Part shown: in pieces, positions 8,454 to 24,000 of the stretch
How the letters are laid out: the number at the start of each line of letters is the position of its first letter
Position numbering within the stretch: position 1 is the first letter of the stretch
From: an uncultured Bacteroides sp.
GTDB lineage: Bacteria > Bacteroidota > Bacteroidia > Bacteroidales > Bacteroidaceae
Assembly: GCA_963676865.2 (NCBI GenBank)
Contig: CAXXSS010000001.1
Span: forward strand, 477,378-501,377
Length of the DNA: 24,000 nucleotides
Direction of reading: 5' to 3'
Notes under the pieces: generated by a model
Database searches by the model: none
Told to the model about the DNA's origin: nothing
The model's input: only the letters and a program-made list of their open reading frames with translations
Translations under genes and position numbers: made by a program

Positions 8454-9249
8454 AGAATGGATTAAGCGAATAGATATGGCTTGTGAAGCTATGGAACAAG
8501 TCGGTCAAACATATAATGGAGCTAAAAATGTTCCAAAGGAGCAATTCGTATTCCTTGATCTCCTAAAGAGGATAAAAGCGAATTTGAAAGGCTGTAGAGA
8601 TATGTTATTCGAGTTAACTAAACTCGATCCTGAAAAGGATAATTTTGAAAAGAAAATACCTCTATCTATTTTGCTACGGTCATGCCTTGCAGATGCTATG
8701 GTAGGCATGTATCTGGCACCATTGACCAAACAAGAGTTCGCAGAAGAACTTGATGTTATAAATCTTGATTTCGTACGGTATATGGGATCAATGATTCCAT
8801 TGGAAATCGAGCTGTATAACCGTCTGTCAGGAGAGAAAATAAACACTCAAGAGGAATTGGATATCAGGTATGACGAATTTTCTCGATTCTTATCATCAGA
8901 TAAGGGGAAACCGTGGACATACCATAAGGCATCGGTATTTAGAGGAGATAAAACGAATAACAAGAAAGTCGATTTTACATTTATACGGAAAAAATTGATA
9001 GAAAGTGAGATAGAGACACAAGCGTTTGCCTATATGTACAACTATTATCGTTATTATTCCCAATACGAGCATTTCACTTCCTTTGGCAGAGAAATCTGGA
9101 ATACCGAATTTGCGGAAGAGATTACTCGAATGGAGATGTCGCTTATATCTGTAATACATTCTTGTTACCTTATAGCTAAAAAATTACCAAAAGCTACGGA
9201 CGCTTTATTGAATCCATTCGTAGTGGTTATAAACTCCATTGTGCCATAA
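8437..9249 (+). CDS. Hypothetical, mostly helical protein, translationally coupled to the PLD nuclease (possible HEPN-like Rx6H motif)
   Basis: The ATG at 8437 overlaps the upstream stop (8451-8453) by 17 nt. There is no signal peptide. The only motif noted is YYRYYSQYEHF (R-x6-H) near the C-terminus, which is compatible with HEPN Rx4-6H but not diagnostic. Confidence 0.6.
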   Translation: MKTRFEEWIKRIDMACEAMEQVGQTYNGAKNVPKEQFVFLDLLKRIKANLKGCRDMLFELTKLDPEKDNFEKKIPLSILLRSCLADAMVGMYLAPLTKQEFAEELDVINLDFVRYMGSMIPLEIELYNRLSGEKINTQEELDIRYDEFSRFLSSDKGKPWTYHKASVFRGDKTNNKKVDFTFIRKKLIESEIETQAFAYMYNYYRYYSQYEHFTSFGREIWNTEFAEEITRMEMSLISVIHSCYLIAKKLPKATDALLNPFVVVINSIVP

Positions 9250-9303
9250 GATTCTCATTTTGATTATGCAGGACAAAGTTTTTTCAAGATAAAAGTATTA
9301 GAT

Positions 9304-10230
9304 ATGAATAAAATTAATAATCATTTTCCCGTTAATATATTGCTTCCAAATGCATCGCAGTTGTTTGAAATTCTATGTGATAAATATGAATTAACAAACA
9401 ACTTTGATAATGGTCTAAGTAAGAAATTAAAAAATGTATGTACAGACAATGCAATTAATGACATAGCTCAAATTCGTGAGCATTACGACAATGAAAATAT
9501 CAAGTATTATCAAATTGCTGTTTGGGAAAACTATTGCCAATTCTTATGGACAATATGCTATTCCTCAATGGTCTATATGGACGAACTTATTATAAAGCCA
9601 TTTCTTGATCCTAATATGAATCGTGATGATCTGCTACTGGAAAAAGCTACTAAGTTGTTTGAAGCCGGAATGAGTTTATTTCATTCTGATTCGACACTTC
9701 GTGCGAATATAAATGTGTTTTTTGAGTTGACAAATCCAATTGAAGACAAAGATGATAAATATGTGAAATCAGCAAACCTCTTATTTGAGGCAAGTCTGTG
9801 TTTTGTCTTATTTCATGAATATCATCATTTTAATTTGGGGCATATAGATAAAGAGCATGTCAAGAATGATGAGATTGAGGCTGATTTTTGTGCTTTTTTC
9901 TCTATGTATGGAGAGAAATCTCTTGAGAAAAGAAAATTCTCATCATTAGGTTGCATTATAGCCTTGTCTTCGCTGTTATTCGTAGATAATACATTAGATG
10001 GAGGAACGCATCCTGATCCTGATGATAGACTTAGTCTGATATTGAATAATATGGATGACTTAGACGAACAAGGGAAAGATTATTGCTATGGTATGGCCAC
10101 AACATTTTATAAAATGTGGGCATTTTATTATAAAGTAAAGGAAATCATACCAAAAGTAGATAAAGCTGAAAACTATAAAGAATATTTTAACATCATTCAA
10201 AAAGCTTTTAATGACTATAAAAAGAAATAG
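9304..10230 (+). CDS. HExxH zinc metalloprotease, Lit (peptidase U49)-like phage-exclusion protease candidate
   Basis: VLFHEYHHFNLGH (H171-E172-x-x-H175, nt 9814-9828) is followed by NDEIEADFCA and later GGTHPDPDDRL. As I recall it, E. coli e14 Lit (about 300 aa) has the same layout: HExxH, a downstream E-x-EAD, then THP..ER. The size (308 aa) agrees. The similarity is recalled from memory, not aligned. Confidence 0.55.
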   Translation: MNKINNHFPVNILLPNASQLFEILCDKYELTNNFDNGLSKKLKNVCTDNAINDIAQIREHYDNENIKYYQIAVWENYCQFLWTICYSSMVYMDELIIKPFLDPNMNRDDLLLEKATKLFEAGMSLFHSDSTLRANINVFFELTNPIEDKDDKYVKSANLLFEASLCFVLFHEYHHFNLGHIDKEHVKNDEIEADFCAFFSMYGEKSLEKRKFSSLGCIIALSSLLFVDNTLDGGTHPDPDDRLSLILNNMDDLDEQGKDYCYGMATTFYKMWAFYYKVKEIIPKVDKAENYKEYFNIIQKAFNDYKKK

Positions 10231-10256
10231 CTGACACATCAATCTTAAAATTCTCT

Positions 10257-10621
10257 TTACCAAGAACACATACCAAATCTCTGACCTTGACCATCAATTG
10301 ACCGCTGAGAGCGATTTGTATATTCTAAGAACCAACTCCACCTACCATCATGCCCTGCAACTTGGATAGCGGGACAATCACTTCGGAATCGATACGGGGC
10401 CCACCATAGCATAAGTGGGGCCGCCTTGGCTAGTTTCGGAGCATTCTTTTGAGATTTTTGTTGATGAGCGCGGTCATCACAGCAATAACCACCATTGCAG
10501 CTCCGATAGCAATCACTGCCCATGGATTGGCAAGTACTGATTTGAGAGCCATCTTAAAAGCAATAATCATCACGCCAAACTCTATCAGTTGTGCGCCGAT
10601 CTGCTTGAGGAAACTCGCCAA
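10257..10621 (-). pseudogene. Remnant of a phage tape-measure-like gene (two frames)
   Basis: The minus-strand piece ..QIGAQLIEFGVMIIAFKMALKSVLANPWAVIAIGAAMVVIAVMTALINKN has a hydrophobic TMP-like segment and ends in a stop. The following sequence reads in another frame as GGPRIDSEVIVPLSKLQGMMVGGVGS.. There is no intact ORF. The stretch is richer in G+C than its neighbours. Confidence 0.4.
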
Positions 10622-10769
10622 TTATAAAAGGATAGCTTTCATCAATCCGTCAAAGCCCAAATCTCCGGCAATGATTTTCACACACCTTTAGGGACACTTT
10701 TTGGAGTCAAATAGTTGGTAGATATTCCGCTTCGGAATCGAATCTTATTAACTAACAATATGAGCAGGT

Positions 10770-11132
10770 TTAAAGACTAATATTGTATTCTTGCAAAAAG
10801 GCTAGAAGATATTCACGTCTTTTATTTCTTGCTTCTAGGCTCTGAACATCTCTACTTTGTGATAGGAATATAATATATGTGCCTATTGATAATCTTTTCC
10901 CAGCATCATTAGCAATGATGGTCTCTTCACTATCTGACCAGCCTATAATTCGGTAAACATTTAAACCCTCCGATTTAACCTTTTCAAGATGATATCCCAT
11001 CCATGGTAACGCTTCGTTGCAATAGTTTGATTTTTTAGTATCAAATCCCCAATAATAAGCTGTGTGTTGAAAGAAATTTATAATAACTTTAGGATTCATT
11101 TTTACCATCTCAGCATGGGTTACTTGTAACAT
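10770..11132 (-). CDS. Hypothetical protein (possibly 5'-truncated)
   Basis: 120-aa ORF. The frame stays open for 39 further codons upstream (TGKSIENEILDSLGNDARAKEHQKLFADYFKPFKDIKAK) without an ATG, which suggests a truncated larger gene. No motif recognised. Confidence 0.4.
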   Translation of the reverse strand: MLQVTHAEMVKMNPKVIINFFQHTAYYWGFDTKKSNYCNEALPWMGYHLEKVKSEGLNVYRIIGWSDSEETIIANDAGKRLSIGTYIIFLSQSRDVQSLEARNKRREYLLAFLQEYNISL

Positions 11133-11413
11133 TTTCGCTTTTATATCTTTGAAGGGCTTAAAATAATCAGCAAAAAGTTTTTGATGTTCTTTTGCTCGGG
11201 CATCATTGCCTAAAGAATCGAGAATCTCGTTTTCTATACTTTTACCTGTCTAAATTATTAATTGTTCTCACAAAGAGAAGCAACTTCCTATGAAAAGACA
11301 TATCATAGGTATAAGAAAAAACACTCAATTTTTCAAGTTAATAATCTTATGAACCAATTTGGCATAGACAAGAATTACATTTGCAAAAAGTTTAAGAAGT
11401 TATTTTGAATTTT

Positions 11414-11745
11414 TAGAATAATAATAAGAAGATGAAACTGTTTCGAGTTCTTTTACCCTTTTACTCTATTGCATACCGCAAAAATATTTCCAGATAGAGA
11501 CAACATGGAAGAAAGGATTTGCCGTATACGCCATCACCATTGTTTTTGCTCTGATGCACATCACGAATTATCCTTTCCACCTACCCTACCTGCCTGTTTA
11601 TTGCCTGCTCGTATTGCCTCAATTCATACTGGGCAGTACTCTTGTATATTTCCGATTAAACCTAGGATTCTTCTATGGATATGGCTTTCATGCGCTGATC
11701 AACTTAATAGGATTCGGCTTGATGCTATCCAAATTATTCTTATAA
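11414..11745 (+). pseudogene. CPBP (CAAX/Abi-type) intramembrane protease remnant, truncated and frameshifted
   Basis: Frame 1 reads ..AVYAITIVFALMHITNYP..FFYGYGFHALINLIGFG, carrying CPBP motifs 2 (FxxxH) and 3 (HxxxN). The N-terminal EExxxR motif is absent. A different frame starting at ATG 11432 gives MKLFRVLLPFY.., possibly a decayed ..LFR.. of motif 1, and ends in a stop. Confidence 0.5.
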
Positions 11746-11935
11746 AAGCGCCCTTATATTTCTCTAAACACCCAAGTATTTTATAGCAGTTTTAATTGAT
11801 CTTTCTACTACCGATAAGAATTTATCGTAACAACATTTATTTACAATATAATTTATCAATATTATTTCCATTTACTGATTGGAAATAAAACACTTGCTAT
11901 ACAAGCCTGACATTACATGAATAGCATATAAAAAA

Positions 11936-11969
11936 GAACCGAACATTAAAAAATGTTCGGTTCCCTTTT
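11936..11969 (-). terminator. Rho-independent terminator downstream of the OMP gene
   Basis: A 12-bp perfect stem pairs gaaccgaacatt (11936-11947) with aatgttcggttc (11952-11963) around a 4-nt loop. On the minus strand it is followed by a T-run (complement of aaaaaa at 11930-11935). It lies about 30 nt after the stop at 11994. Confidence 0.65.
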
Positions 11970-11993
11970 ATATGACTACTTTCTTATTACAAA

Positions 11994-12617
11994 TTAAAAT
12001 TTGTAACCAACGTTAATGCTAAAATTAGAATTATATACTTTAGCACTCTCTTGAACTTTAAGCAATCCAAGTTCAAAACTACCACCTACAAGAAATTTAC
12101 CGAATTCAAGCCCGGCTTCAAAATTCAAACCGGCATCGAAACGTTTCATTCCAGGGAAGGTTTCACCCTCAACCTGTTCATCATCGAAAGTATTCCAATC
12201 AATGCTGACCGTTTGACCCCCAGAAGTTCCACTTGCTTTCGTTTTCCCAAAAATGCCATATGCAATGTAAGGACCTGCAGCAACAGTTAGATTTGTTTTC
12301 TCGGCTACTTTGAAACGGAACTGCACGTCAAGAGGCATATCCAGAAACCAAGCATTGCGTTTCAGATCACCTCCATTAATATCATATTTAGCTCCTTTAT
12401 GAGATAGATACAAAGTCGGCTGTAAAGATATCATATCGCTCAGTGGATATTCAACACCAAAACCGACACGACCACCAACAAGAGTTTTAGACTCATCAGA
12501 GTCACTTCCATGAAAATTACTTAAATTAAAACTACCTTTCACGATCGGAGTGATTTGAGCAAACGAAACCACCGAAATAAAGGTGAAAAGCACCGCAAAT
12601 AAAATTGATTTTTTCAT
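11994..12617 (-). CDS. Small outer-membrane beta-barrel protein (OmpA-like/porin-family barrel)
   Basis: It has the signal peptide MKKSILFAVLFTFISVVSFAQ, alternating amphipathic beta-strand pattern rich in G/Y/F, and a C-terminal ..NVGYKF ending in Phe, as is typical for OMPs. Confidence 0.8.
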   Translation of the reverse strand: MKKSILFAVLFTFISVVSFAQITPIVKGSFNLSNFHGSDSDESKTLVGGRVGFGVEYPLSDMISLQPTLYLSHKGAKYDINGGDLKRNAWFLDMPLDVQFRFKVAEKTNLTVAAGPYIAYGIFGKTKASGTSGGQTVSIDWNTFDDEQVEGETFPGMKRFDAGLNFEAGLEFGKFLVGGSFELGLLKVQESAKVYNSNFSINVGYKF

Positions 12618-12655
12618 TTTAAAAATTTTAAATTAATAATTTATGTTGAACGCGA

Positions 12656-12663
12656 CAAATATA
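12656..12663 (-). promoter_or_regulatory. Candidate -7 box for the OMP gene
   Basis: The minus strand reads tatatttg (TAnnTTTG), 39 nt upstream of the ATG at 12617. No convincing -33 element was seen. Confidence 0.3.
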
Positions 12664-13065
12664 GTAAAAATTTACAACCAATTTTAAATATTTGGACTTA
12701 AATAAATTAAAAACATGCATTTTCTATTATTCCCTATACATACAACAAGCGAAACTATTTAATAGTTTATACAAAGCACTACATTCTACACACAAAAGAA
12801 TGCTTTCTTTACCTGCTCAAAGATATTGTACTTGCCGAAAAATAGGACTGAGACATTACGTACTCCATCGTATTATTATTGGGAGTCGGACGCCAAACAA
12901 AAGATAGTGCAATATCGCAACAAAGTGTTTGAACTCGCCTCTAGAGCAGACCTTGAGTGCTTTTTATTTGGTTCATAAGGTTATAAGTCCTATCTTTATC
13001 GGCAATTAAACTAATTATTAACCCTAACGGAGACTTGTCTCCGGCCAAAAAGCATTTAATACAAG

Positions 13066-14442
13066 ATGAAAAAACGCTTTACTGCACCATTTATGGTGCT
13101 GATTATGCCCGCACTCCTATCGGCATGTATCAACCACATTAACGATGAAGTAGACAACAACCAAACGCAACCCGATGGCACTCGGGGTAGCGCAACGCTC
13201 AAGATTCAGACGAGAGCCGACAAAGGTGCTGCCGACAGCAAAGTGAGTTATCCCGTGCAACTCTATGTATTCAACTCGAGCGGAACATGCGCGGCTACCG
13301 CAACCATCGCTTCCGAAGCAGACCCCATTACTTTCACTCTGCCTACCGGTACCTACAGTGTGAGCGCCATAGCAGGCGCCGATGCCACAAGTTATCAACT
13401 GCCTTCGAAAGAAGAAGCGACCAAAAGCTCGTCCATCGTACTGCGCGAAGGTTACCGCCATGCCGATCTGATGACGGCGCGCAACAGTGTGGTGCTCGGC
13501 GAAGACGAGACCAATACACTGACCCTTTCGCTCACCCGGCAAGTGATGCAGCTCAGCGAAATCACCATACTCAAAGCACCCAAATCGTCGACCTCAGTCA
13601 AGGTCACCTTCTCTCCTCTCCACGGAGGCATAGGCATGGGCGGAACCTATAGCGGTAACGAAAGCAGCCACACCATCAATCTAGAGAAACAAGCCGATGG
13701 CACCACTTGGAAATCATCTTCGGCCGAATATCTGCTGGCACCCACCGACCAAGCCACCATTGCCGTATCCATCGCCTATTCCAAAGGAACCAAAAGTTTT
13801 TCCTATTCGTGCGGCAGCCAACTGCAAGCAGGCTACAAGCTCAATATCAAAGGGACTTATACTTCGAACACGGGCGTCACTCTTTCCGGTTCCATGACAG
13901 GAGTAGCTTGGCTGGGCGAACGTAGCATCGAATTCACTTTCGACGATGACGGCACTACCAACGGAAACGGGGGAACGACCGGCACTGGCACCGACAACTC
14001 CGGTCTAGTCGACCAAATTCCCTCCAAAGGTGACGTATACGCCGGATGTTGCATCTTCGCCGTCACCGAGCAAACAGAAAACAGCGCCACTCTCAAACTT
14101 CTCTCGCCGAAAGAGATTTCCGGAATAATCGATTCAGGATATACGACAGACCAGCTTCAATCGGCCATCCATACAAACATACCTCTATGCAGTGCGCTCG
14201 GCATTGACGGTTGGCGATTGCCCACGGAAGATGAAATAACGACCATATCCAACAACAATGGTTATATCAACCGTATGCTGAAAGAGGCAAATATCGCCCC
14301 AATTGCCGCAGGTTCTTATTTCCGACAGATGACCGACGGCAGCATCGGTGCTTACAACATCACATCCACCATCCATACAGGATACATAGACAAAAATACT
14401 CGCCTGCGCCCCGTAGCGACACTGAAAGTGAGACTCCGATAG
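13066..14442 (+). CDS. Surface lipoprotein, FimB/Mfa2-like fimbrillin N-terminal region with DUF1566/Lcl-like C-terminal domain
   Basis: The lipobox is MPALLSAC. ATLKIQTRADKG..VQLYVFNSSG..TFTLPTGTYSV..HADLMTARNSVVL..TNTLTLSLTRQVMQL is typical of Bacteroidales fimbrial-subunit-like proteins. A G/T-rich linker follows. The C-terminal GWRLPTEDEI..LRPVATLKV resembles DUF1566. Confidence 0.7.
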   Translation: MKKRFTAPFMVLIMPALLSACINHINDEVDNNQTQPDGTRGSATLKIQTRADKGAADSKVSYPVQLYVFNSSGTCAATATIASEADPITFTLPTGTYSVSAIAGADATSYQLPSKEEATKSSSIVLREGYRHADLMTARNSVVLGEDETNTLTLSLTRQVMQLSEITILKAPKSSTSVKVTFSPLHGGIGMGGTYSGNESSHTINLEKQADGTTWKSSSAEYLLAPTDQATIAVSIAYSKGTKSFSYSCGSQLQAGYKLNIKGTYTSNTGVTLSGSMTGVAWLGERSIEFTFDDDGTTNGNGGTTGTGTDNSGLVDQIPSKGDVYAGCCIFAVTEQTENSATLKLLSPKEISGIIDSGYTTDQLQSAIHTNIPLCSALGIDGWRLPTEDEITTISNNNGYINRMLKEANIAPIAAGSYFRQMTDGSIGAYNITSTIHTGYIDKNTRLRPVATLKVRLR

Positions 14443-14628: not shown

Positions 14629-15138
14629 ATGATAAAGACCGATCATATTCAGACATGCACTGTCCCCAACGACATTATGCTGGGAGAAATACGAAAGCTG
14701 GTTGCCGAAGGGCATCCCGTGAAATTTCGTGTGAGAGGGCAAAGCATGCTTCCGTTTATTGTAGGCGACAGAGACAGCGTAAGGCTGGTGAAGACCAACG
14801 TTTATTGCCCCCAAGATATTGCGCTGGCCGAGATACAGCCGGGACATTATGTGCTCCATCGCATTGTTTCGGTAACCGGACAGCAGCCCAAAGATTCGGT
14901 CATATTGATGGGCGACGCCAATCTGAAAGAACAAGAGCACTGCTCCGTAGGTGACTTGGCAGGCATAGTAGACCGCATTTTCCGCCATTGCAACGAGATA
15001 GACCCACACAGCCGCACAGAGCAAATGGCGGTATATTGCTGGCAGTTGCTCACGCCGCTTCGCCGATGGCTGCTTGCCGTCTATCGGCGCACCTATCTGC
15101 GGCATCAAAACAATAATTGCACCAACACGAAGATATGA
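14629..15138 (+). CDS. S24/S26-family (LexA/signal-peptidase-like) serine peptidase
   Basis: VRGQSMLPFIVGDRDSV (GxSMxP nucleophile motif) and HYVLHRIVSV match the S24/S26 core. The stop overlaps the next start (ATGA at 15135-15138). Confidence 0.7.
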   Translation: MIKTDHIQTCTVPNDIMLGEIRKLVAEGHPVKFRVRGQSMLPFIVGDRDSVRLVKTNVYCPQDIALAEIQPGHYVLHRIVSVTGQQPKDSVILMGDANLKEQEHCSVGDLAGIVDRIFRHCNEIDPHSRTEQMAVYCWQLLTPLRRWLLAVYRRTYLRHQNNNCTNTKI

Positions 15139-15404
15139 AAATCAAACAGGGCTTTTCTCTCCGCCAGATGGGAACAGATTGCATCGTGATCCCGAATGGA
15201 AGCGAAGTCATCGATTTCGACAACATCATCAGCCTCAACGCCACCGCCGTTTATCTGTGGAACGAGTTGCAGAATAGCGCGTTTGACAACGAAACGGCCG
15301 CACAGTTACTGATGCAGCGATACGCTCTCGACATCGACACGGCCCGTTGCGATGCGACGGTACTATTAGACAAATGGATCAAAAACGGCATTGTTGAAGT
15401 ATGA
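15135..15404 (+). CDS. PqqD-family (RiPP recognition element-like) small protein
   Basis: 89-aa product MKIKQGFSLRQMG..ISLNATAVYLWNELQN..TAAQLLMQRYALDIDTARCDATVLLDKWIKNGIVEV fits the PqqD winged-helix pattern. The start was chosen at the ATG 15135 overlap rather than at 15117. Its stop overlaps the ABC gene start. Confidence 0.65.
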   Translation: MKIKQGFSLRQMGTDCIVIPNGSEVIDFDNIISLNATAVYLWNELQNSAFDNETAAQLLMQRYALDIDTARCDATVLLDKWIKNGIVEV

Positions 15405-17062
15405 TACAAATGATTAGACGCTGTATGGGCTGGCTATGGTCGGCATCGAAAGGCATCCGCCTCCGGCTGTTCATCGATTCGTTCCTCGGATTGATACGTG
15501 TAGCGGCGGGTTTGACGTTTATCTACGTCAGCAAAGTATTGGTCGACCTGGCTACACACAGCCACAACGTCTCTTCCACTACCCTACTCGGCTACGGCGC
15601 CCTATTGGTGGCGCTTATTATCATAGAGCTGATGTCCAACATCTGTAGCTCGTGGCTCAGCAATCAGACAGAAATAAAGATGAAAAACCGCATTCGGCGC
15701 AACCTCTTCGCACACCTCATCAATGCCTATTGGGAAGGACACGAGAAGCTGCACAGCGGCGACATACTCAACCGCCTGGAAGAAGATGTACGCGTAGTGA
15801 CCGATACCTTATGCCATTCGCTTCCGGCACTTTTCACCACCGGCGCCCAGCTCATCGCGGCGTTCGTCTTCCTGAGCCAAATGAACCTCACACTCGCGCT
15901 ATCCGTCATCTGCATCATGCCTTTCTTTCTGCTTGTCAGCAAAATCTACATCCGTCGGATGAGGAGTCTCACCAAAGACATCCGAAACACCGACAGCAGC
16001 GTGCAGAGCATCTTGCAAGAAAGCATCCAACACCGCATCGTGATACAGACCATGGAGCAGAACGATGCCATCACCAACAGGCTCAGCCGGCTGCAATCCA
16101 CCCTCTACGGGCAGACGATGAAACGCACGCGCTTCACCCTCTTCTCGCGCAGCATGGTATCCGTCGGCTTTATGGCAGGATACATCACGGCTTTCATGTG
16201 GAGCATCATCGAACTGCACAACGGAGCCATCACTTTCGGCGTAATGACAGCCTTCTTGCAATTGGTAGCTCAGATTCAAGGTCCCACCGTAGAACTCACC
16301 AAGCAGATACCGGGCTTCATCCATGCCTCTACCTCCATCGACCGGCTCACCGAGCTGGACAAGATACCCACCGAAAAGATCTCCCGCCATCAGATGCTGA
16401 CAGGCATTGCCGGCATCCGACTCACCGACATTTCTTTTCGCTACCTGCAAGGCGACAGAGATATATTCTCCCACTTTTCGTACGACTTCACTCCCGGCAG
16501 CCGCACCGCTATCGTAGGCGAGACGGGAGCCGGCAAGAGTACCATGATTCGCCTGATACTCTCGCTGCTCCACCCGCAGCAGGGCAAAATGGAACTCTAC
16601 AACAACCAAGGCCACGCCATTGCCATGGACGCCGGCAGCCGTTGCAATCTGGTCTACGTGCCCCAAGGCAACAGCCTGCTGAGTGGCACCATACGCGACA
16701 ATCTGCTATTGGGCAATCCCGAGGCAACCGACAAGCAGATGTTCGAAGTACTCCATATTGCCTGCGCCGACTTCGTTTCGGAGTTGCCCGACGGACTCGA
16801 TTCGCACTGCGGAGAGCAAGGAGCCGGACTGAGCGAAGGACAGGCCCAGCGCATCGCCATTGCCCGCGGACTGCTCCGTCCGGGCAGTATTCTGCTGCTC
16901 GACGAATTCAGTTCCTCGCTCGACGGCGACACCGAAAGCACCTTGATACAACGCCTACTGCATACCCGGCAGCAGAAAACAATGATCTTTATCACCCACC
17001 GCGAAATGATTCTGCAATACTGCAACAACGTTATCAAACTGGGTGGAGACAGCAGGTCCTAA
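15401..17062 (+). CDS. ABC exporter, fused permease-ATPase (type I exporter half-transporter)
   Basis: The N-terminal half is a six-TM-like hydrophobic region. It has Walker A GETGAGKST, signature LSEGQAQRIAIARGL, and Walker B ILLLDEFSS followed by LD. Confidence 0.9.
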   Translation: MIQMIRRCMGWLWSASKGIRLRLFIDSFLGLIRVAAGLTFIYVSKVLVDLATHSHNVSSTTLLGYGALLVALIIIELMSNICSSWLSNQTEIKMKNRIRRNLFAHLINAYWEGHEKLHSGDILNRLEEDVRVVTDTLCHSLPALFTTGAQLIAAFVFLSQMNLTLALSVICIMPFFLLVSKIYIRRMRSLTKDIRNTDSSVQSILQESIQHRIVIQTMEQNDAITNRLSRLQSTLYGQTMKRTRFTLFSRSMVSVGFMAGYITAFMWSIIELHNGAITFGVMTAFLQLVAQIQGPTVELTKQIPGFIHASTSIDRLTELDKIPTEKISRHQMLTGIAGIRLTDISFRYLQGDRDIFSHFSYDFTPGSRTAIVGETGAGKSTMIRLILSLLHPQQGKMELYNNQGHAIAMDAGSRCNLVYVPQGNSLLSGTIRDNLLLGNPEATDKQMFEVLHIACADFVSELPDGLDSHCGEQGAGLSEGQAQRIAIARGLLRPGSILLLDEFSSSLDGDTESTLIQRLLHTRQQKTMIFITHREMILQYCNNVIKLGGDSRS

Positions 17063-17180
17063 TCGCTCCCTTATCCGTTCTATCTCTATCGGCCATTCAC
17101 CCTATCGGCTATTTATCTCCGCTCGAGGCAAGCATTCAATACAATAAAGAACGCTCCATATCGCAATAACGCACACAAAA

Positions 17181-17234
17181 AAGGGCTTCAGTAGCCTCCT
17201 TTTCATATCAAGGAGTCCACCGAAGCCCTTTTCG
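17181..17234 (+). terminator. Rho-independent terminator after the ABC exporter gene
   Basis: The outer stem pairs aagggcttc (17181-17189) with gaagccctt (17222-17230). An inner stem pairs ctcctt with aaggag. The structure is followed by tttc. Confidence 0.55.
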
Positions 17235-17245
17235 AAGCGCCAAAA

Positions 17246-17520
17246 CCAATCGATTGGGGTTCGGAAATGGTTTTCGAAGCTCGAATTGCAATCATTTGGT
17301 TAACGAAATCCAAATCCGAGGCTCAGATTCGCTTGCTTTGTTAAAGGAAACCAATTACGAGCCTCGAAAAGCAATCACTTGGTTAAAGGAAGCCAAATAC
17401 GAGGCTCATTTTGCATTTCCCGACCCCAATCGATTGCAATCCGAGGCTCGAAAACTACTTCCGAGGACTGGTCGATTGCTTCACGAGGGTCATTTTGCAT
17501 TTCCGAGGCCCCATTGATTG
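17246..17520. repeat. Degenerate tandem repeat tract, period about 83-84 bp, with CCAATCGATTGG palindromes
   Basis: 17288-17324 versus 17371-17407 is 32/37 identical. 17400-17420 versus 17484-17504 is 20/21 identical (cgagg[c/g]tcattttgcatttcc). The palindrome ccaatcgattgg lies at 17246-17257, with near copies at 17426-17436 and about 17510-17520. Confidence 0.65.
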
Positions 17521-17578
17521 GGATTTTAACACTCAACAGATTGGATGCGCTGCGCTCAATGCAAATTCAGAGGGAATA

Positions 17579-19108
17579 CTACTGAGCCTGCCACAGACTT
17601 TGAGCGTATGTGCGATACCAATAAGTGTAGTCAGCGTTGGTGGGACCGAAGGTCAGGCAGTTACTGTTACTGCTATCAAAGCTAGGCGTAGATGACCAAT
17701 AATGGCCGGCCGTTCCTCCTGCGACGAAATCACTCCCCCCAGGGATCAATCTACCGGCAGCCGGAAGAAAGAAATAGTTCGTACTGAGATTGAGAGCAGA
17801 AATCGTCGCAGCACTCAGTGAGGACAACAACGTAGGAGTAGTACTTGTCACACCACTCGAAACAGTGGTAGAATAACCAGTGATGCCCGATTTCTTCCGA
17901 AGCCACATGCCTGACGTAGTATAATTGCCATCTATCAGTTCATACTCCGTTTTATTAACGATTCCATCGTCCCAATAACATCCCGCCTTCAGGTACCAAC
18001 TAATCTCGTAGCCGTTGGGACAAATCTTGCAAGCGTAGAGCGCACGGTTGCTATAGTCGGTAGTGCCGTCGGCCAAAGGAGTAGTATTAACATTGTAACT
18101 CTCGGAACCTAAGGTGGCAGGTTTATAATCGATAGCGTCCCAAAGATAAAGTTTACTCGAATCAAAGAAAGCATTAGTTATCGCCAATGGTTTGGACTTG
18201 ACTTGGGCGGCAGTCAAAGAGAAACCACTCAGCGTTATAATCCGATTGGTATAGGAATTACCCGAATCGTCCGAGCACGAAATGGTGAGCGTACCATTAA
18301 TGCCACTGAAAGGCCACGTCATGAAGTAAACATCCACCACCCCGGCTGTCGTGGGCGTAATGGTAGCAGTCCAACTCGTACCCCAAGAGCCTGTCAACTT
18401 ATTGAGAGTTCCGTCCGCCTTGAGAGTAGCAGTGCCACCGTTACCGGGAAGGATATTGGCGGCCGAAGAAGTGAGCGTCACCGTAACAGGATAGCTCGTA
18501 GAGAAGCTGCTGCTCGTGAGGTGAAGGTTCATCATGCCAAAAAGATGGTGCATCGCCAGCGAACCGGGTAGACCCGTACTGTAATCGACACTGGCGCTGC
18601 CATAGAGCGCATCGTAGGTGGCGCAGTCTGCCAACGTACCCTTCTGGCTCGCCAGCGTGGTAGCCGCAAGGGAACTCGTTCCGTCAGTTGCCACAGTGGG
18701 TGTATAGCCTCCGCCCGAATTACCGGAGAAAGCATAGAGACGCACACCGGGATTGTAGCGATAGCCGATACCGCCCGAATAAGAGAACGTGGCCGAAGTG
18801 CCACTCGTAGTGGTAGTGGCAAACGGTAAAGAAGTCGTCACAGCCTGAACGGCGCGATTCAATACATATGGATGATAGATCTTGAGCTGGTCACTATTCC
18901 AAGAACAACTGAAAGCGCCGCCATACGTATCGCTCATACTCACACGGCTCGATGCCTCGCCCAGCTGAGCCGTGAGCGGAAGGCTCGCCACAGAGGCACC
19001 CTCACTCACTTGAGCGTTATCACTACTTTGGCATGAGCCAAAGCAAAGGAGCAGCGCAAGCACTACATATAGCGGCGCTGCTAAAAGAGGTCGACTAATC
19101 TGTTTCAT
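17579..19108 (-). CDS. Fimbrillin-family surface lipoprotein paralog 1 (conserved N-terminal region, variable C-terminal FISUMP/DUF1566-like domain)
   Basis: The lipobox is LLCFGSC. SRVSMSDTYGGAFSCSWNSDQLKIY fits the fimbrillin (Mfa-like) N-terminal pattern. The C-terminal YFFLPAAG..G..GHYWSSTP..ends in WQAQ. Nearly identical N-terminal two-thirds are shared with the three downstream-coordinate paralogs. Confidence 0.85.
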   Translation of the reverse strand: MKQISRPLLAAPLYVVLALLLCFGSCQSSDNAQVSEGASVASLPLTAQLGEASSRVSMSDTYGGAFSCSWNSDQLKIYHPYVLNRAVQAVTTSLPFATTTTSGTSATFSYSGGIGYRYNPGVRLYAFSGNSGGGYTPTVATDGTSSLAATTLASQKGTLADCATYDALYGSASVDYSTGLPGSLAMHHLFGMMNLHLTSSSFSTSYPVTVTLTSSAANILPGNGGTATLKADGTLNKLTGSWGTSWTATITPTTAGVVDVYFMTWPFSGINGTLTISCSDDSGNSYTNRIITLSGFSLTAAQVKSKPLAITNAFFDSSKLYLWDAIDYKPATLGSESYNVNTTPLADGTTDYSNRALYACKICPNGYEISWYLKAGCYWDDGIVNKTEYELIDGNYTTSGMWLRKKSGITGYSTTVSSGVTSTTPTLLSSLSAATISALNLSTNYFFLPAAGRLIPGGSDFVAGGTAGHYWSSTPSFDSSNSNCLTFGPTNADYTYWYRTYAQSLWQAQ

Positions 19109-19138
19109 CGTATCTTACTTTAAAAATTAAAAGATTCG

Positions 19139-19336
19139 TTACTGATCGCTCCAAGTATCGGAGTCCGTGCCGCCGGCCTTGTTCCAGCTATCCACCGCCA
19201 CTCCACTGGGGCTATTGTCCGTCACGCCCTGAGAGGCTGCAAAGCCGCCCTCGGTAGCAACCTGCACCCGCTCCGTGCGTGGTGCATCGTAGGCAGGCTT
19301 GCCTATCGCACTGTCATGCTCTTTTTCGGTATTCAT
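19139..19336 (-). CDS. Small acidic, low-complexity ORF (65 aa) upstream of paralog 1
   Basis: The ORF lies in the 295-bp gap between paralogs. Its stop is 30 nt before the paralog 1 ATG, on the same strand. There is no signal peptide, and the sequence is G/S/T/D-rich. A 3'-end remnant recurs at 21025-21053. Whether it is coding is uncertain. Confidence 0.35.
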   Translation of the reverse strand: MNTEKEHDSAIGKPAYDAPRTERVQVATEGGFAASQGVTDNSPSGVAVDSWNKAGGTDSDTWSDQ

Positions 19337-19403
19337 ATCTATCTTATCTATTATTTATTAAAAACCTTTTTAAAAATGTTCGTATGTAAATACTGAGAGA
19401 ACA

Positions 19404-20957
19404 CTACTGCCCCTGCCACACGCAGTAACCGCTGGTGCGATTGCCATTGACGAGGCTCGCACCAGAACTGCCCAAGCTCAGGCAGTAGGCGTACGTGGCA
19501 TTAGGGTAGGGGTAGGGCGTAGACGACCAATAGTAGCCCATCGTACCACCACTAAAGAAACTGTTATAATTGCCCTTCGTATAGCCGGCAAGCGGCAGAA
19601 AGAAGTAGTCGGTACTCAAATTTAATGCACTAATTTGAGTAGAAGTCATACCGGACAATGCCACGGAACTACTAATTTGGGTGCCGGTAAAAGCACTAGT
19701 TGAGGAAAAGCCTGTGATTTTTGATTGCTTCAAAAACCACATACCTACTTTAGTAGTAAGGCCGTTAACCATAGTATAGCTTTTGGTATTACCACCATTA
19801 GCCCCCTGGTTACCGTCATCCCAATAGTATTGAGCACTCAAATACCAACTAATTGCGTTATAGTTAGGACAATTCTTGCAAGCATAGATGGCATGAATAG
19901 TGTAGTCAGTAGGGTCGTTGGATACAGTAGTGGTATTGGCATTGGTAGGTTTAACGCCCACGGTTGCAGACTGATAATCAGTGGCATCCCAAGTGTAAAC
20001 TTTGGAATAATCAATAGGAGCATTAGCTAGCGCCAGCGGCTTGGACTTAACCTGAGCGGCAGCCAAACCGAAGTTGCTTAACGTGATGGTGCGGGCAGTA
20101 TAAACATTGCCAGTACCATCCGAGCACGAAACGATGAGAATACCGTTAATGGCACTGAAAGGCCAAGTCATAAAGTAGACATCCACCACCCCAGCTGTCG
20201 TCGGGGTAATAGTAGCGCTCCAGTTTGTGCCCCAAGAGCCCGTCAATACATTGAGACTGCCGTCCGCCTTGAAAGTAGCAGTTCCACCGTTACCGGGAAG
20301 GATATTGGCGGCCGAAGAAGTGAGCGTCACCGTAACAGGATAGCTCGTAGAGAAGGTGCTACTCGTGAGGTGAAGGTTCATCATGCCGAAAAGATGGTGC
20401 ATCGTCAACAACGCAGGTTTACCCGTACTGTAGTTCACACTGGCGCTACCATAGAGCGCATCGTAGGTGGCGCAGTCCGTCAACGTACCCTTCTGGCTCG
20501 CCAACGTGGTAGCCGCAAGGGAACTCGTACCATCAGTTGCCACAGTGGGTATATAGGTTCCACCCGCATTACTGGAGAAAGCATAGAGCCGTGCACCCGG
20601 ATTGTAGCGATAGCCGACACCGCCCGAATAAGAGAACGTGGCCGAAGTGCCGTTCGTTGTGTTAGTGCCAAACGGTAGATAAGTCGTCATGGCCTGAACG
20701 GCGCCACTGAGCACGTATGGATGATAAATCTTAAGCTGGTCGCTGTTCCAAGAACAGCTGAAAGCGCCACCATACGTATCGTTCATAATCACACGGCTCG
20801 ATACCTCGCCTATCTGTGCCGTAAGCGGAAGGTTCGCCACAGAGGCGCCCTCACTCACTTGAGCGTTATCACTACTCTGGCAGGAGCCAAAGCACAAAAG
20901 CAACGCAAGCACTACATATAGCGGCGCTGCAAAAAGGGGTCGATAGTTTTTTTTCAT
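19404..20957 (-). CDS. Fimbrillin-family surface lipoprotein paralog 2
   Basis: The architecture matches paralog 1. By alignment with the paralog N-termini (MKQISRPLL / MIQISRPLF), the start is more likely MKKNYRPLF (ATG at 20957) than the upstream Met at 20978. It ends in WQGQ. Confidence 0.85.
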   Translation of the reverse strand: MKKNYRPLFAAPLYVVLALLLCFGSCQSSDNAQVSEGASVANLPLTAQIGEVSSRVIMNDTYGGAFSCSWNSDQLKIYHPYVLSGAVQAMTTYLPFGTNTTNGTSATFSYSGGVGYRYNPGARLYAFSSNAGGTYIPTVATDGTSSLAATTLASQKGTLTDCATYDALYGSASVNYSTGKPALLTMHHLFGMMNLHLTSSTFSTSYPVTVTLTSSAANILPGNGGTATFKADGSLNVLTGSWGTNWSATITPTTAGVVDVYFMTWPFSAINGILIVSCSDGTGNVYTARTITLSNFGLAAAQVKSKPLALANAPIDYSKVYTWDATDYQSATVGVKPTNANTTTVSNDPTDYTIHAIYACKNCPNYNAISWYLSAQYYWDDGNQGANGGNTKSYTMVNGLTTKVGMWFLKQSKITGFSSTSAFTGTQISSSVALSGMTSTQISALNLSTDYFFLPLAGYTKGNYNSFFSGGTMGYYWSSTPYPYPNATYAYCLSLGSSGASLVNGNRTSGYCVWQGQ

Positions 20958-21024
20958 AAGTGCATTCATTTTAAACATTACTAATAAGATCAGATGTTTT
21001 ATATTAAATACTTTTCACTTCATA

Positions 21025-21053
21025 TTACCGATCGCTCCAAGTAGCGGAGCCCG
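21025..21053 (-). other. Remnant of the 3' end of the small acidic ORF
   Basis: ttaccgatcgctccaagtagcggagcccg matches the 3' end of the 65-aa ORF (19139-19167, ttactgatcgctccaagtatcggagtccg) at 26 of 29 positions. Similarity is then lost, and no ORF remains. Confidence 0.5.
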
Positions 21054-21247
21054 CATCACAGAATTACCTCTTTCGATCTCTTTATTCTTTTTCAATTATT
21101 GGTTATGGCAACGCTTCCGATTCTTCAAACGAGTGGAAACAGCCCAAACTCGATGTTTTTCCTCATGTCCAGTGGATTCATTGATTCTTTCTTCGGCACT
21201 AGATGCCACATAGAAGTGCCTCAGTCAGTAAAAACTCGGAAAGAATA

Positions 21248-22768
21248 CTACTGAGCTATCCACAAAGCACAACCATGCGTACGAAGATGATAGCTGAAGT
21301 ACGCAGTACCGCTATTGAAGCACAGGAAATAAGCATGCGTGATAAGACTATGGGGAGAAGACGACCAATAGACATCACTACTAGTTTTGAATTCGCCAGT
21401 ATCATAGTCCGTATACCCGATAGCTGGTAAGAAGAAGAAATTTGCTTTCAGATTAAGGCTAGAAGCGAGAGAAGCTGTAAGGGAAACAGGAGTACGAGTA
21501 GTGGGAGTACTAGATGCAGTAGAAGAAAAATTTGAGATGAGAGATTTCTTTTTGAACCACATACCCGTCTTTGTGTAATTGCCATCAGCCAATTTGTAGG
21601 ACGTCGTATTCCCACCGTTAATTGTGCCATCGTCCCAATAACAATCTTCACTGAGATACCAAGTTATTTCATTGCCATTGGGGCAGCTTTTACAAGCATA
21701 GCTGGCATGATTAAGATAATCGGAAGATGTAACAACGCTGTTTGCATTGGTCGGTTTGGTTCCTGGAATGACAGGTTGATTGTCTGTAGCATCCCAAGCG
21801 TATAACTTAGAATAGGTAGCATCTGCAGGAATGTTGGCTATCGCCAGTGGTTTGGACTTAACCTGAGCAGCAGTCAGAGAGAAACCGCTCAGCGTAACAG
21901 TACGAGGAGTATAATTATAACCCGTATTGTCCGAACACGAAACCGTGAATGTACCGTTAATGGCACTGAAAGGCCAAGTCATGAAATAAACATCCACCAC
22001 CCCAGCTGTCGTGGGCGTAATGGTAGCGCTCCAGTTTGTGCCCCAAGAACCTGTCAACTTATTGAGAGTTCCATCCGCCTTGAAGGTAGCATTGCCACTG
22101 TTACCTGGAAGGATATTGGCGGCCGAAGAAGTAAGCGTCACCGTAACTGGAAAGCTCGTAGAGAAGGTGCTGCTCGTGAGGTGAAGATTCATCATCCCGA
22201 AAAGGTGATGCATCGCCAGCGAGCCGGGCAGACCCGTACTGTAATCGACACTGGCGCTACCATAGAGCGCGTCGTAGGTGGCACAGTCTGCCAACGTACC
22301 ATTCTGGCTCGCCAATGCGGTAGCCGCAAGCGTACTCGTACCGTCAGTTCCCACATTGGGCGTATAGCCTCCGCCCGAATTAACAGAGAAAGCATAGAGA
22401 CGCGCACCCGGATTGTAGCGATAGCCGACACCACCCGAATAAGAGAACGTGGCCGAAGTACCGTTCGTTGTGTTAGTGCCAAACGGTAGATAAGTCGTCA
22501 TGGCCTGAACGGCGCCACTGAGCACGTATGGATGATAAATATTGAGCTGGTCGCTGTTCCAAGAACAGCTGAAGGCACCACCATACGTATCGCTCATACT
22601 CACACGGCTCGAGACATCACCTATCTGTGCCGTGAGCGGAAGGCTCGACACAGAGGCACCCTGGCTCACTCGAGCATTATCGCTACTCTGGCAAGAGCCA
22701 AAGCACAATAGCACCGCAAGCACTACATATAGCGGCGCTGCAAAAAGAGGTCGACTAATCTGTATCAT
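21248..22768 (-). CDS. Fimbrillin-family surface lipoprotein paralog 3
   Basis: It has the same lipobox and conserved N-terminal region, a divergent C-terminal third, and ends in WIAQ. Confidence 0.85.
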   Translation of the reverse strand: MIQISRPLFAAPLYVVLAVLLCFGSCQSSDNARVSQGASVSSLPLTAQIGDVSSRVSMSDTYGGAFSCSWNSDQLNIYHPYVLSGAVQAMTTYLPFGTNTTNGTSATFSYSGGVGYRYNPGARLYAFSVNSGGGYTPNVGTDGTSTLAATALASQNGTLADCATYDALYGSASVDYSTGLPGSLAMHHLFGMMNLHLTSSTFSTSFPVTVTLTSSAANILPGNSGNATFKADGTLNKLTGSWGTNWSATITPTTAGVVDVYFMTWPFSAINGTFTVSCSDNTGYNYTPRTVTLSGFSLTAAQVKSKPLAIANIPADATYSKLYAWDATDNQPVIPGTKPTNANSVVTSSDYLNHASYACKSCPNGNEITWYLSEDCYWDDGTINGGNTTSYKLADGNYTKTGMWFKKKSLISNFSSTASSTPTTRTPVSLTASLASSLNLKANFFFLPAIGYTDYDTGEFKTSSDVYWSSSPHSLITHAYFLCFNSGTAYFSYHLRTHGCALWIAQ

Positions 22769-22822
22769 AAAAATATTTATTTAAATAAATGAGTCATTAC
22801 TAAACTAAATACTGAAAAGATA

Positions 22823-24000
22823 CTACTGGGCCGTCCAAAGACAGCAGCCGGACGAGCGGTCGTCACCAATGAAAGATGCGCCAGAATTATCGAAATATAG
22901 AAGATAGGCAATCGTGGTATTTGGGTCGGGCATGGACGACCAATAGTATCCGCTCGTACCAGCGCCAGAGAAACCGCCATTACTATCCGTATGGCCGACA
23001 GCCGGAAGGAAGAAATAATCGGTTAAGTCAAAACCGGTAGCAACAATTGCGGCAAGAAGGGTGGACTCACAGTTTTTGGTCTCGCTAAAAAGGGTAGGAT
23101 GAAAGTCCTTGAGGGCCGATTTCTTACAAAGCCATATGCCCGCCTTAGTTGTAGTGCCATCGGCGCAGGTGTAGCTCGTGGTGTTACCACCGGGGACGTT
23201 GCCATTGTCCCAATAGCAATTCCCGTACAGATACCAGCTGATTTCGCAAAGACTGGGGCAGCTTTTACAAGCATAAAGGGCACGACTCATAAAGTCGGGA
23301 TCCGCGTTGGAAACGCTGGTGGTATTGGCATTAGTCGGAGCGGTGTTTACAGTGACAGGCTTAGAATCGGTTGCATCCCAAGTGTAAAGTTTAGAATAGA
23401 TATCGGAAGTGATAGCGGGAGCTGAACTTATCGCCAATGGTTGGGACTTGACCTGAGCGGCAGCCAGAGAAAAACCGCTCAACGTAATGCCGCGAGCAAT
23501 GTAAGAATGAGGCGAATTATCCGAGCACGAAATACTAAGCGTGCCATTGATGGTATTGAAAGGCCATGTCATCAAGTAAACATCTACCACACCGTTAGTT
23601 GTTGGCGTGATAGTAGTATACCAATTGTTTCCCCAAGAGCCTGTCAGCTTATTAATACTGCCATCGGCATTGAGGGTTGCATTACCCCCATTACCGGGAA
23701 TGATATTGAGAGCCGAGGAGTTGAGTGTCACTGTAACGGGATGGTCGGTAGAAAAACCGCTATTGGTGAGGTGAAGATTCAGCATGCCAAAGAGATGGTG
23801 CATCGCCAGCGAACCGGGCAGACCCGTACTGTAGTTCACGCTGGCGCTACCATAGAGCGCATCGTACTTGGCACAATCCGTTAGCGTACCATTCTGGCTA
23901 GCTAGCGTGTTAGCCGTCAGTGTACTCGTTCCGTCAGTTCCCATATTGGCAGTATATCCCCCACTCGTTCCGCTCGAAAAAGCATAGAGCCGCGTACCCG
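22823..24000 (-). CDS. Fimbrillin-family surface lipoprotein paralog 4 (5' end outside window)
   Basis: The frame stays open upstream of the listed Met to the window edge (GTRLYAFSSGTSGGYTANMGTDGTSTL), aligning with residues about 120-145 of paralog 3. It ends in WTAQ. Confidence 0.85.
   Translation of the reverse strand, partial: GTRLYAFSSGTSGGYTANMGTDGTSTLTANTLASQNGTLTDCAKYDALYGSASVNYSTGLPGSLAMHHLFGMLNLHLTNSGFSTDHPVTVTLNSSALNIIPGNGGNATLNADGSINKLTGSWGNNWYTTITPTTNGVVDVYLMTWPFNTINGTLSISCSDNSPHSYIARGITLSGFSLAAAQVKSQPLAISSAPAITSDIYSKLYTWDATDSKPVTVNTAPTNANTTSVSNADPDFMSRALYACKSCPSLCEISWYLYGNCYWDNGNVPGGNTTSYTCADGTTTKAGIWLCKKSALKDFHPTLFSETKNCESTLLAAIVATGFDLTDYFFLPAVGHTDSNGGFSGAGTSGYYWSSMPDPNTTIAYLLYFDNSGASFIGDDRSSGCCLWTAQ

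Follow-up and report, generated by a model that had tools for sequence, protein, structure and literature searches.

A tandem family of pilin-like lipoproteins in an uncultured Bacteroides with a putative footprint of diversity-generating retroelements in their variable heads

The last third of a 24,000-nucleotide stretch of DNA from an uncultured Bacteroides sp. (contig CAXXSS010000001.1; the whole stretch is called the window below) contains four paralogous lipoprotein genes, w1 to w4, whose products combine highly similar N-terminal bodies with strongly divergent C-terminal heads. How could neighbouring genes come to have nearly the same body and such different heads? We consider it probable that w1-w4 belong to a repertoire of variable surface lipoproteins of the diversity-generating retroelement (DGR) lineage, shaped by gene duplication, reassortment of heads, homogenisation of bodies, and adenine mutagenesis that is either past or present.

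In the proposed scheme, adenine-specific mutagenic retrohoming from a template repeat (TR) would convert the AAY codons (Y, C or T) of the variable region (VR) to NNY; this process is shown for relatives of the window genes, and for w1-w4 themselves we infer it from a footprint that may record past events. Whole heads would represent old lineages that were reassorted onto different bodies by recombination, and the body-coding halves of neighbouring copies would be kept near-identical by gene conversion or recent duplication. The outcome would be a germline repertoire of constant stalks with different ligand-binding tips, in which the copies are full-length and potentially expressed.

The array and its gene family

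The four open reading frames (ORFs) are co-directional and arranged head-to-tail on the minus strand (Table 1), with start-to-start distances of 1849, 1811, and 1590 nt, in line with the period of about 1.6-1.9 kb given in the first-pass annotation of this DNA. The ORF call for w2 spans 19404-20978; its true start is likely at 20957, and the resulting protein has the same length as its database counterpart P0005. Start codons and signal peptides are present in w1-w3, and the protein encoded by w4 is full-length in the database (P0016). The identity to w1 over whole proteins is 70% for w2, 71% for w3, and 59% for w4, and the similarity among the four is far above chance. The w1 protein consists of a body (residues ~40-310) and a globular head (residues ~311-509, ~190 aa). 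Body residues 121-300 are 83-87% identical among w1-w3, as opposed to 42-50% for the heads (residues 311-509) in all pairs of the four proteins; this is the split into a similar N-terminal and a divergent C-terminal part that had been noticed before. The C-terminal ends WQAQ, WQGQ, WIAQ, and WTAQ agree with the W-x-[A/G]-Q terminus proposed at the same time.

The regions upstream of w1 and w2 have in common an element of ~30 nt, GGrCTCCGmTACTTGGAGCGATCrGTAA, that holds a short hairpin (GCTCC...GGAGC), and the spacer between w4 and w3 is only 54 nt long. The common 5' element may be regulatory; alternatively, there may be partial co-transcription of the genes. The 24-kb window contains neither an Rfam family nor a tRNA, and the idea of phase variation was rejected, as no inverted repeats were found in the intergenic regions of the array. 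A scan for sigma-70 promoters and terminators remained at the background level; such a scan is not applicable to promoters of Bacteroidetes.

Among 5.8 billion proteins searched (E<=1e-3), 63 family members were found. Of these, 29 are encoded on one contig of 3,692,182 bp, which also carries w1 at 100% identity and which we take to be the source genome. The genes w1-w4 are members of a multigene family that is specific to this lineage and has 29 copies on the 3.69-Mb contig. With an exhaustive profile search, the number of clusters was 2724 at a threshold of E<=1e-3 and 425 at one of E<=1e-10; many of them have the same full-length architecture, which is therefore not rare in the wider sense. 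Further related loci were found in metagenome-assembled genomes of uncultured Prevotellaceae and Bacteroidales (GTDB scan) and in metagenomes of the Joint Genome Institute (JGI).

One JGI contig, Ga0183100_1000066 (loci L004/L006, L005, and L010), is syntenic with the window and is referred to below as the close relative. Its flanking genes for an outer-membrane protein (OMP), an Mfa2-like protein, an S24-like protein, PqqD, and an ATP-binding cassette (ABC) transporter are 80-90% identical to those of the window at the amino acid level; next come the four paralogs j1-j4, and after them LuxC/LuxE genes. A second array of this contig comprises seven paralogs. The gene j1 is the positional orthologue of w1. 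The orthologue of w4 is j2 (510 aa), with a head that is 74% identical in amino acids and differs by 0.33 at 4-fold degenerate sites. The w2 and j1 heads differ by 0.37 at such sites, about the level of orthologues, and the w2 head is likely orthologous to that of j1, which is itself a DGR target of the close relative (see below). The arrays in L004, L005, and a more distant locus, L016, are flanked by genes for LuxC/LuxE, a Wzc-like kinase, FdtA, and glycosyltransferases.

Retroelement footprint in the heads

Relatives of the family are demonstrably DGR targets, as judged from their sequence. Locus L016 (Ga0302211_10000647, 1-6330; ~33% identical to w1) contains two target genes of the same family together with a complete DGR, comprising Avd, a TR, and a reverse transcriptase (RT) with the IGNLTSQ and YVDD motifs. 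The template repeat, 194 nt in length, encodes GSNGYYWSSTPNSNATNAYNLNFNSSNVNANNNNRNNGFCLWSVQ. In its comparisons with the two VRs, 21 of 24 and 17 of 25 mismatches fall on template adenines. Many sibling contigs of the Ga0302 sample series contain further VR variants of the L016 subfamily.

The L016 template defines where mutagenesis would be expected in other members. We call the columns aligned to its Asn (AAY) codons N columns and the remaining ones scaffold columns. In the last ~45 codons of w1-w4 (G465-Q509 in w1), the hypervariable columns are almost all occupied by NNY codons, including those for Gly, Ser, and Thr, and conserved residues nearby have codons ending in G or A. NNY codons make up 55 of 60 (92%) at the N columns of w1-w4 and 62% at scaffold columns (p=2e-5); the corresponding values are 89% and 61% for 21 close relatives, and the DGR-bearing subfamily, which served as a positive control, reaches 97-99% at the N columns. 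Among the 29 paralogs of the source genome, N columns have an entropy of 3.02 bits and scaffold columns one of 1.24 bits (p=4e-7).

A second trait with a counterpart in L016 is located behind the genes. Each of the four has a conserved post-stop element (TAGTATTCyyTCwGwATTT) of ~20 nt directly behind the stop codon, and behind w1 the similarity runs further, as GCATTGAGCGCAGCGCATCC. This element is homologous to the end of the TR/VR homology in L016, and also to the sequence flanking the co-templated VRs, described next, of the close relative on their 3' side. In all four genes the VR-like segment runs up to the stop codon, with this conserved candidate homing sequence, resembling an initiation of mutagenic homing (IMH) site, behind it; such an arrangement is one by which DGR targets are recognised.

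Five paralogs of the close relative (j1, three members of the seven-gene array, and another gene, on Ga0183100_1000645) have VR scaffolds that are 87-97% identical in nucleotides and randomised NNC codons. The first and second positions of their N codons are 30-47% identical; beyond the VR, identity among these genes ranges from 60-92% for the head to 48-88% for the body. The template that this implies has the sequence ...CTC nAC nnC nnC nnC CGC ACC nAC GGC TTC AGT CTG TGG CAG GCG CAG. This pattern implies, at the level of sequence, that one template rewrote several remote targets.

Could the variable heads of w1-w4 have arisen instead by ordinary divergence of paralogs, that is, by point mutation and positive selection for loops rich in Tyr, Ser, Asn, Gly, and Asp, with no retroelement involved and with a resemblance to DGR VRs that reflects only shared ancestry of the fold? 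This explanation agrees with the lack of a DGR in the window and with dN/dS ratios (nonsynonymous to synonymous divergence) below 0.4 everywhere. A test based on the amino acid repertoire (absence of K, E, Q, M, and W) was rejected as uninformative, since the whole proteins are poor in these residues, Lys, Glu, and Gln among them, and a test confined to 4-fold codon families was used in its place. In these families, 116 of 130 codons at the N columns of the 21 close relatives (89%) end in C or T, against 62-64% elsewhere (p=2e-9 and 3e-10, that is, ~1e-9), and therefore amino acid composition does not explain the excess. Ordinary divergence is also at odds with the coincidence of the variable columns with AAY codons of a real template and with the near-identical scaffolds and randomised NNC codons of the five paralogs of the close relative. 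We consider it improbable.

Several observations weigh against DGR-driven diversification of the window genes. The 4-fold codon test gives a weak signal when confined to w1-w4 (17 of 20 codons, p=0.06), a result that ordinary divergence would also accommodate. No RT or Avd gene was found in the window or in loci L001-L015 and L017-L031, which include ~60 kb of the close relative; a short-word BLAST search of the window for a TR recovered only the four VRs themselves; and none of the best 120 of 7997 RT matches lies on the 3,692,182-bp contig. The VR scaffolds of w1-w4 are only 64% identical to each other and the third positions of their N codons are a mixture of C and T, so that no single shared template is currently rewriting these four genes. 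Several N-column residues are retained between w4 and its orthologue j2 with only synonymous changes, which disfavours recent rewriting of w4. At the protein level, searches of Pfam and NCBIfam with the four proteins and with the isolated head gave no hit at E<=0.1, and a Foldseek comparison of the head model with PDB gave no significant match (the best were 4eps with E 2.6 and a human C-type lectin with E 4.7). Finally, no operon for stalk or anchor pilins was observed beside any array examined; polysaccharide-biosynthesis genes are found there instead.

In our reading of the codon patterns, the footprint shows DGR ancestry of the variable tips of w1-w4, and current DGR activity on window genes, most plausibly on w2, is possible. 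An alternative is that an active DGR elsewhere in the 3.69-Mb genome now acts in trans and diversifies some, or many, among the 29 paralogs; its targets might include w2 and the paralogs ending in GFSLWQGQ, and the array would then consist of live remote targets, not fossils. Four observations speak for it: (i) in the close relative, at least five VRs at three sites are co-templated and ~60 kb contain no RT, and therefore remote targeting operates in this lineage, (ii) w2 is 83% identical to the VR scaffold of the close relative, about what species divergence predicts, (iii) P0002, P0003, P0010, and P0055 of the source genome have scaffold residues in common, and (iv) the post-stop element is retained. 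The RT and TR searches described above count against it, as do the low mutual identity of the four VRs and the identities of w4 (71%), w1 (66%), and w3 (64%) to the scaffold of the close relative. On balance we hold such an active element to be possible, if somewhat unlikely. Its template would be expected to be 130-200 nt long and to read ...TATTGGTCGTCT...CTGTGGCAG(G/C)(G/C)GCAGTAG followed by ~20 nt, with AAC or AAT at the hypervariable columns. A scan of viral contigs for the 3' scaffold of the VR gave zero matches.

Descriptions of DGR targets usually concern a single gene, or a small number of genes, beside the retroelement, and our results suggest an expansion to a repertoire of 29 copies in a Bacteroidales lineage. 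One template apparently rewrites five or more copies, located at three sites, in the close relative. If this holds in a cultivable strain, the following would become testable: the reach of a DGR in trans, the cis elements that define a target (the post-stop element being a candidate), and the cooperation of duplication, conversion, and retrohoming in building a repertoire of surface receptors. A bolder extension, that one trans-acting DGR serves up to dozens of dispersed targets in tandem arrays with gene-converted bodies and reassorted heads, appears rather unlikely; if true, it would combine germline arrays of variable genes with targeted hypermutation, far above the 7-8 targets per DGR in the 2017 survey (PMC5758913).

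Recombination and predicted folds of bodies and heads

The DGR ancestry favoured here concerns the tips of the proteins, and the history of the bodies is different. Divergence was measured at third positions of 4-fold degenerate codons, restricted to residues identical in both proteins. Among w1-w3 it is 0.18-0.26 in the N-terminal half (codons 1-260) and 0.53-0.63 in the head; for orthologous flanking genes of the window and its syntenic relative it is 0.22-0.35. The synonymous divergence dS by the method of Nei and Gojobori gives a similar picture for w1-w3, with 0.23-0.52 for codons 1-310 and 1.3-2.6 (saturated) for codons 311-509. Overall, synonymous divergence is ~3-fold lower in the N-terminal half than in the head. 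The bodies of w1-w3 are synonymously free to diverge, because they differ from the w4 body by 0.45-0.50. The low body and high head values therefore point to recombination or gene conversion and not to constraint alone. On the same measure, the w1-w3 bodies appear to have coalesced around or after the species split, and their heads appear to be much older.

Individual exchanges can be recognised as well. An 80-nt tract is identical in w2 and w3; it belongs to a gene-conversion tract of ~codons 61-120, where the proportion of synonymous differences (pS) is 0.06-0.11 and that of nonsynonymous differences (pN) is 0.00-0.01, and where 16 concordant polymorphic sites form a run (permutation p=1e-4). 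The 72-nt tract reported earlier for w1 and w2 exists, with its first interval and its offset shifted by one (18435-18506, offset 1849). The closest gene pair changes from segment to segment. Bodies and heads are incongruent across the 29 paralogs: P0001 and P0002 are 94% identical in the body vs 53% in the head, and P0003 and P0050 are 41% vs 83%. A close strain (L009; Ga0070399_1067256, 1-1290) matches the window at 90-98% identity in the intergenic region between w2 and w1 and at the start of w1, and only at 50-80% over the end of w2, where it has a quite different head. The breakpoint is located ~20-30 nt past the w2 stop codon, at the conserved post-stop element. The signature of gene conversion or recombination that the first-pass annotation had read from long identical tracts is thus borne out: identity along the genes is mosaic, not uniform, and the head at array position 2 differs between strains. 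That interpretation was largely right about architecture and recombination, and missed the retroelement layer.

Two other explanations have to be weighed against this evidence. According to the first, the N-terminal similarity is due to purifying selection on the body only, with less constrained heads and no conversion. The low dN/dS of the body (0.15-0.23) would fit, but synonymous sites show the same contrast between body and head among w1-w3, and much larger distances to the w4 body; the 80-nt identical tract, the incongruence of bodies and heads, and the strain-level breakpoint just past the w2 stop codon also contradict this explanation, which we find scarcely credible. The second is classical antigenic variation of the pilE/pilS or vlsE type, with one expressed gene and silent donor cassettes. 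Tandem copies, conserved flanks around a variable segment, and conversion tracts are all reminiscent of such systems. However, w1-w4 do not conform to a set of silent truncated donors with a single expression locus: each copy of the window is a complete ORF that has its start codon as well as a signal peptide and lipobox; truncated cassettes were not observed; the detected conversion makes the constant part uniform and imports no variable cassettes; and the intergenic regions of the array contain no invertible promoter or inverted repeats. Classical antigenic variation is thus very improbable here.

The preferred combination of DGR-derived tips with homogenised bodies agrees with the predicted protein folds. 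All four proteins were annotated earlier as fimbrillin-like lipoproteins with a common signal peptide and lipobox. The lipobox motif LLCFGSC is present, and its Cys26 is invariant in 53 aligned family members. The AlphaFold model of w1 built with the family alignment (predicted local distance difference test, pLDDT, 84) suggests a body of two beta-sandwich domains up to residue ~310 that is type V pilin-like. In Foldseek searches, it matches 4k4k, 3sy6, 3ufi, and 3t2l (E 4e-9 to 3e-8; template-modelling score normalised to the target 0.51-0.55), the tip pilin 4eps (E 4e-7), and also Mfa2 (5nfi) and Mfa4 (5dhm), so that matches to Bacteroidales type V pilins range from E 4e-9 to 1e-6 and uphold the fimbrillin-like designation. 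R55, in the motif SSRV, is conserved in at least 90% of the 53 members and is a candidate Arg/Lys maturation site; it lies in a low-confidence loop (residues 52-65) after the strand 45-49 of the model, and type V pilins undergo maturation in the loop after their first strand. Searches of Pfam and NCBIfam with the four window proteins found no match, including none to P_gingi_FimA, Mfa_like_1, or Mfa2; the sole link to a fimbrillin hidden Markov model (HMM) is a remote profile match, P0070, that reaches Mfa_like_1 at 3e-6. The family profile returned nothing from PDB sequences. The earlier description as tip-pilin-like surface adhesins stands for the pilin-like body and lacks a counterpart in the gene neighbourhood, where no stalk or anchor operon adjoins the array. 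Mounting on a pilus and a role as a ligand-binding adhesin are inferred, and the roles put forward earlier, in glycan binding, phage-receptor variation, or immune evasion, are hypothetical.

Another lipoprotein gene of the window, 3 kb from the array and on the opposite strand, encodes an Mfa2-like protein (Pfam Mfa2, 1.7e-14); apart from the array, the window has no further gene of fimbrial type. The Mfa2-like protein has an extra C-terminal domain with GWRLPTEDE, reminiscent of DUF1566/Lcl_C, and is 86% identical to its orthologue in the close relative, that is, not variable.

For the head (model pLDDT 94), indirect evidence from profiles and structural models suggests the CLec2/DUF1566/FISUMP kind. 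The family profile finds P0084 at 1.5e-48, and P0084 in turn matches Pfam Fib_succ_major at 2e-22 and Lcl_C/DUF1566 at 5e-18; it is one of the proteins matched by the profile that are built of repeats of the last ~65 residues. The distant members P0055 and P0063 match only Lcl_C, at E 0.017 and 0.095. The best matches of the head model in BFVD are two phage FISUMP-domain proteins (probability 1.00, E 0.013, root-mean-square deviation 1.5 A), over ~58 columns only. An additional subdomain at the N-terminal side of the head carries the motifs WD, CxxCP, and YWD, which are invariant. The FISUMP/DUF1566 label proposed on the basis of the C-terminal pattern was thus right in kind, with the P0084 link and the BFVD matches behind it in place of direct Pfam, NCBIfam, or PDB hits, and the structure prediction that had been recommended for this domain led to the same phage FISUMP models. 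As a practical consequence, a family that is invisible to Pfam and NCBIfam is flagged as a likely family of ligand-binding surface proteins.

The precomputed Pfam family PF26707 is assigned to the source-genome paralogs P0002, P0003, and P0055 and also to RT ORFs with N-terminal extensions (P0264, P0272, P0301, and P0312), sometimes together with Lcl_C. These extensions are probably translated template repeats, and therefore PF26707 may model this type of VR.

Neighbouring features and comparison with known systems

The remainder of the window contains three further regions (Table 1). A low-GC island (32-38% GC vs 47-56% elsewhere) carries plus-strand genes of defence type, as well as several ORFs without a family match. 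In L004, SelR instead follows the OMP gene, and therefore the island looks like an insertion. It is followed, beyond the Mfa2-like gene, by a conserved cluster of three genes with overlapping ORFs that is also present in the syntenic relative; this cluster may be a module for peptide maturation and export. The spacer between the ABC transporter gene and w1 (17179-17521) includes a bidirectional terminator-like hairpin, 3.2 copies of a direct 42-nt repeat, and inverted repeats of 24-63 nt, and this nest of repeats may be an element resembling repetitive extragenic palindromes (REP) or miniature inverted-repeat transposable elements (MITE).

Table 1. Positions of the features discussed in the window, in the distant DGR locus L016, and in the close relative
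Feature	Position	Strand	Remarks
Window
w1	17579-19108	-	509 aa; P0001 (100% database match)
w2	19404-20957	-	517 aa; P0005; ORF open up to 20978
w3	21248-22768	-	506 aa; P0004
w4	22823-24000	-	Cut by window end; full protein P0016, 511 aa
Homogenised N-terminal half	w1 18329-19108; w2 20178-20957; w3 21989-22768	-	Codons 1-260; 4-fold divergence
72-nt identical tract, w1/w2	18435-18506 = 20284-20355	-	Offset 1849
80-nt identical tract, w2/w3	20650-20729 = 22461-22540	-	Gene-conversion tract, ~codons 61-120
VR-like segment	w1 17582-17716; w2 19407-19547; w3 21251-21385; w4 22826-22960	-	w1: last 45 codons, G465-Q509
Post-stop element	w1 17556-17578; w2 19381-19403; w3 21225-21247; w4 22800-22822	-	Repeat family D4
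Regions with common ~30-nt 5' element	w1 19109-19403; w2 20958-21247		Upstream of w1 and w2
Low-GC island	2000-12900	+	Defence-type genes
ThsB-like Toll/interleukin-1 receptor (TIR) protein	3305-3718	+	Low-GC island
Caspase-like peptidase	3721-4695	+	Low-GC island
Phospholipase D (PLD) nuclease	7368-8453	+	Low-GC island; resembles ZacB/DrmC/NgoFVII
Lit-like peptidase	9304-10230	+	Low-GC island
Mfa2-like lipoprotein	13066-14442	+	
Three-gene cluster	14629-17062	+	
S24/S26-like protein		+	Three-gene cluster; 169 aa; GQSMLP...GD
PqqD-like protein	15117-15404	+	Three-gene cluster; 95 aa
MsbA-type ABC exporter	15401-17062	+	Three-gene cluster
Terminator-like hairpin	17179-17232		Bidirectional
Direct 42-nt repeats	17275-17407		3.2 copies
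L016
VR1	977-1187		In first target gene
ORF without family match	1276-1746		
Avd	1751-2098		PF22296
TR	2320-2530		
RT	2552-3781		RVT_1
Two FdtA genes			Between RT and VR2
VR2	6117-6327		In second target gene
Close relative
Array of seven paralogs	L005 1486-13141		~20 kb from the other array
Array of four paralogs	L004 4614-11563		

The literature that we searched holds no description of the combination proposed here from sequence comparison, that is, 29-copy arrays, a gene-converted body, reassorted heads, and a DGR footprint in polysaccharide-type loci. Parts of it are represented in four groups of known systems. The Fibrobacter succinogenes major paralogous domain (TIGR02145/PF09603) likewise belongs to a large paralogous family of lipoproteins with an end module of the FLPAAG...YWSS type, and the last ~60 residues of the window heads superpose on models of phage FISUMP domains. 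The window proteins differ from that family in having no direct HMM hit to it and in a ~190-aa head with an extra N-terminal subdomain.

The DGR variable proteins of cyanobacteria, according to Vallota-Eastman et al. (2020; PMC7517822), include dispersed paralogs and remote targets, and some of these paralogs retain only remnant TR-VR homology with no RT nearby. The window family is similar in its duplicated and dispersed targets, in the evidence for remote targeting in the close relative, and in copies without a nearby RT. It belongs to another phylum and joins the variable segment to a pilin-like lipoprotein body, as opposed to the kinase or caspase partners described there; the passages of that study considered here do not mention tandem arrays with a gene-converted constant region.

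The CLec2 DGR targets (category 'd') overlap with DUF1566 and DUF823 and also with Fib_succ_major, an example being LdtA of Legionella, and are sometimes fused to fimbrial domains; the largest sets per DGR in the survey of Wu et al. (2018; PMC5758913) had 8 targets in tandem or 7 that were non-adjacent (remote). In common with them, the window family comprises surface lipoproteins with conserved cysteines and a C-terminal VR scaffold of the YWSS...R..G..(W/V) type, and some CLec2 members likewise carry fimbrial N-terminal domains. The differences are the failure of the window proteins to match Pfam or NCBIfam directly and a family size of 29, compared with 7-8 targets per DGR.

The closest counterparts are the DGR-diversified tip adhesins of type V pili in Bacteroides, BfrT, BthT, and BunT, of which BovFim1C (PDB 4EPS) is a static homologue (bioRxiv 10.1101/2024.11.15.621889). 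Like the window proteins, such adhesins are lipoproteins with a pilin-like body and a C-terminal globular head, and the VR is placed at the very C-terminus; the structural matches of the w1 model include 4EPS, and L016 is a family member with the full Avd-TR-RT cassette. The window genes are distinguished by the lack of an adjoining DGR and of a stalk/anchor operon. Whereas the known adhesins are encoded by one target gene that ends a pilus operon, the family described here has 29 copies in tandem arrays within polysaccharide-type loci, with bodies that appear to be homogenised by gene conversion and heads that appear to be reassorted between body classes.

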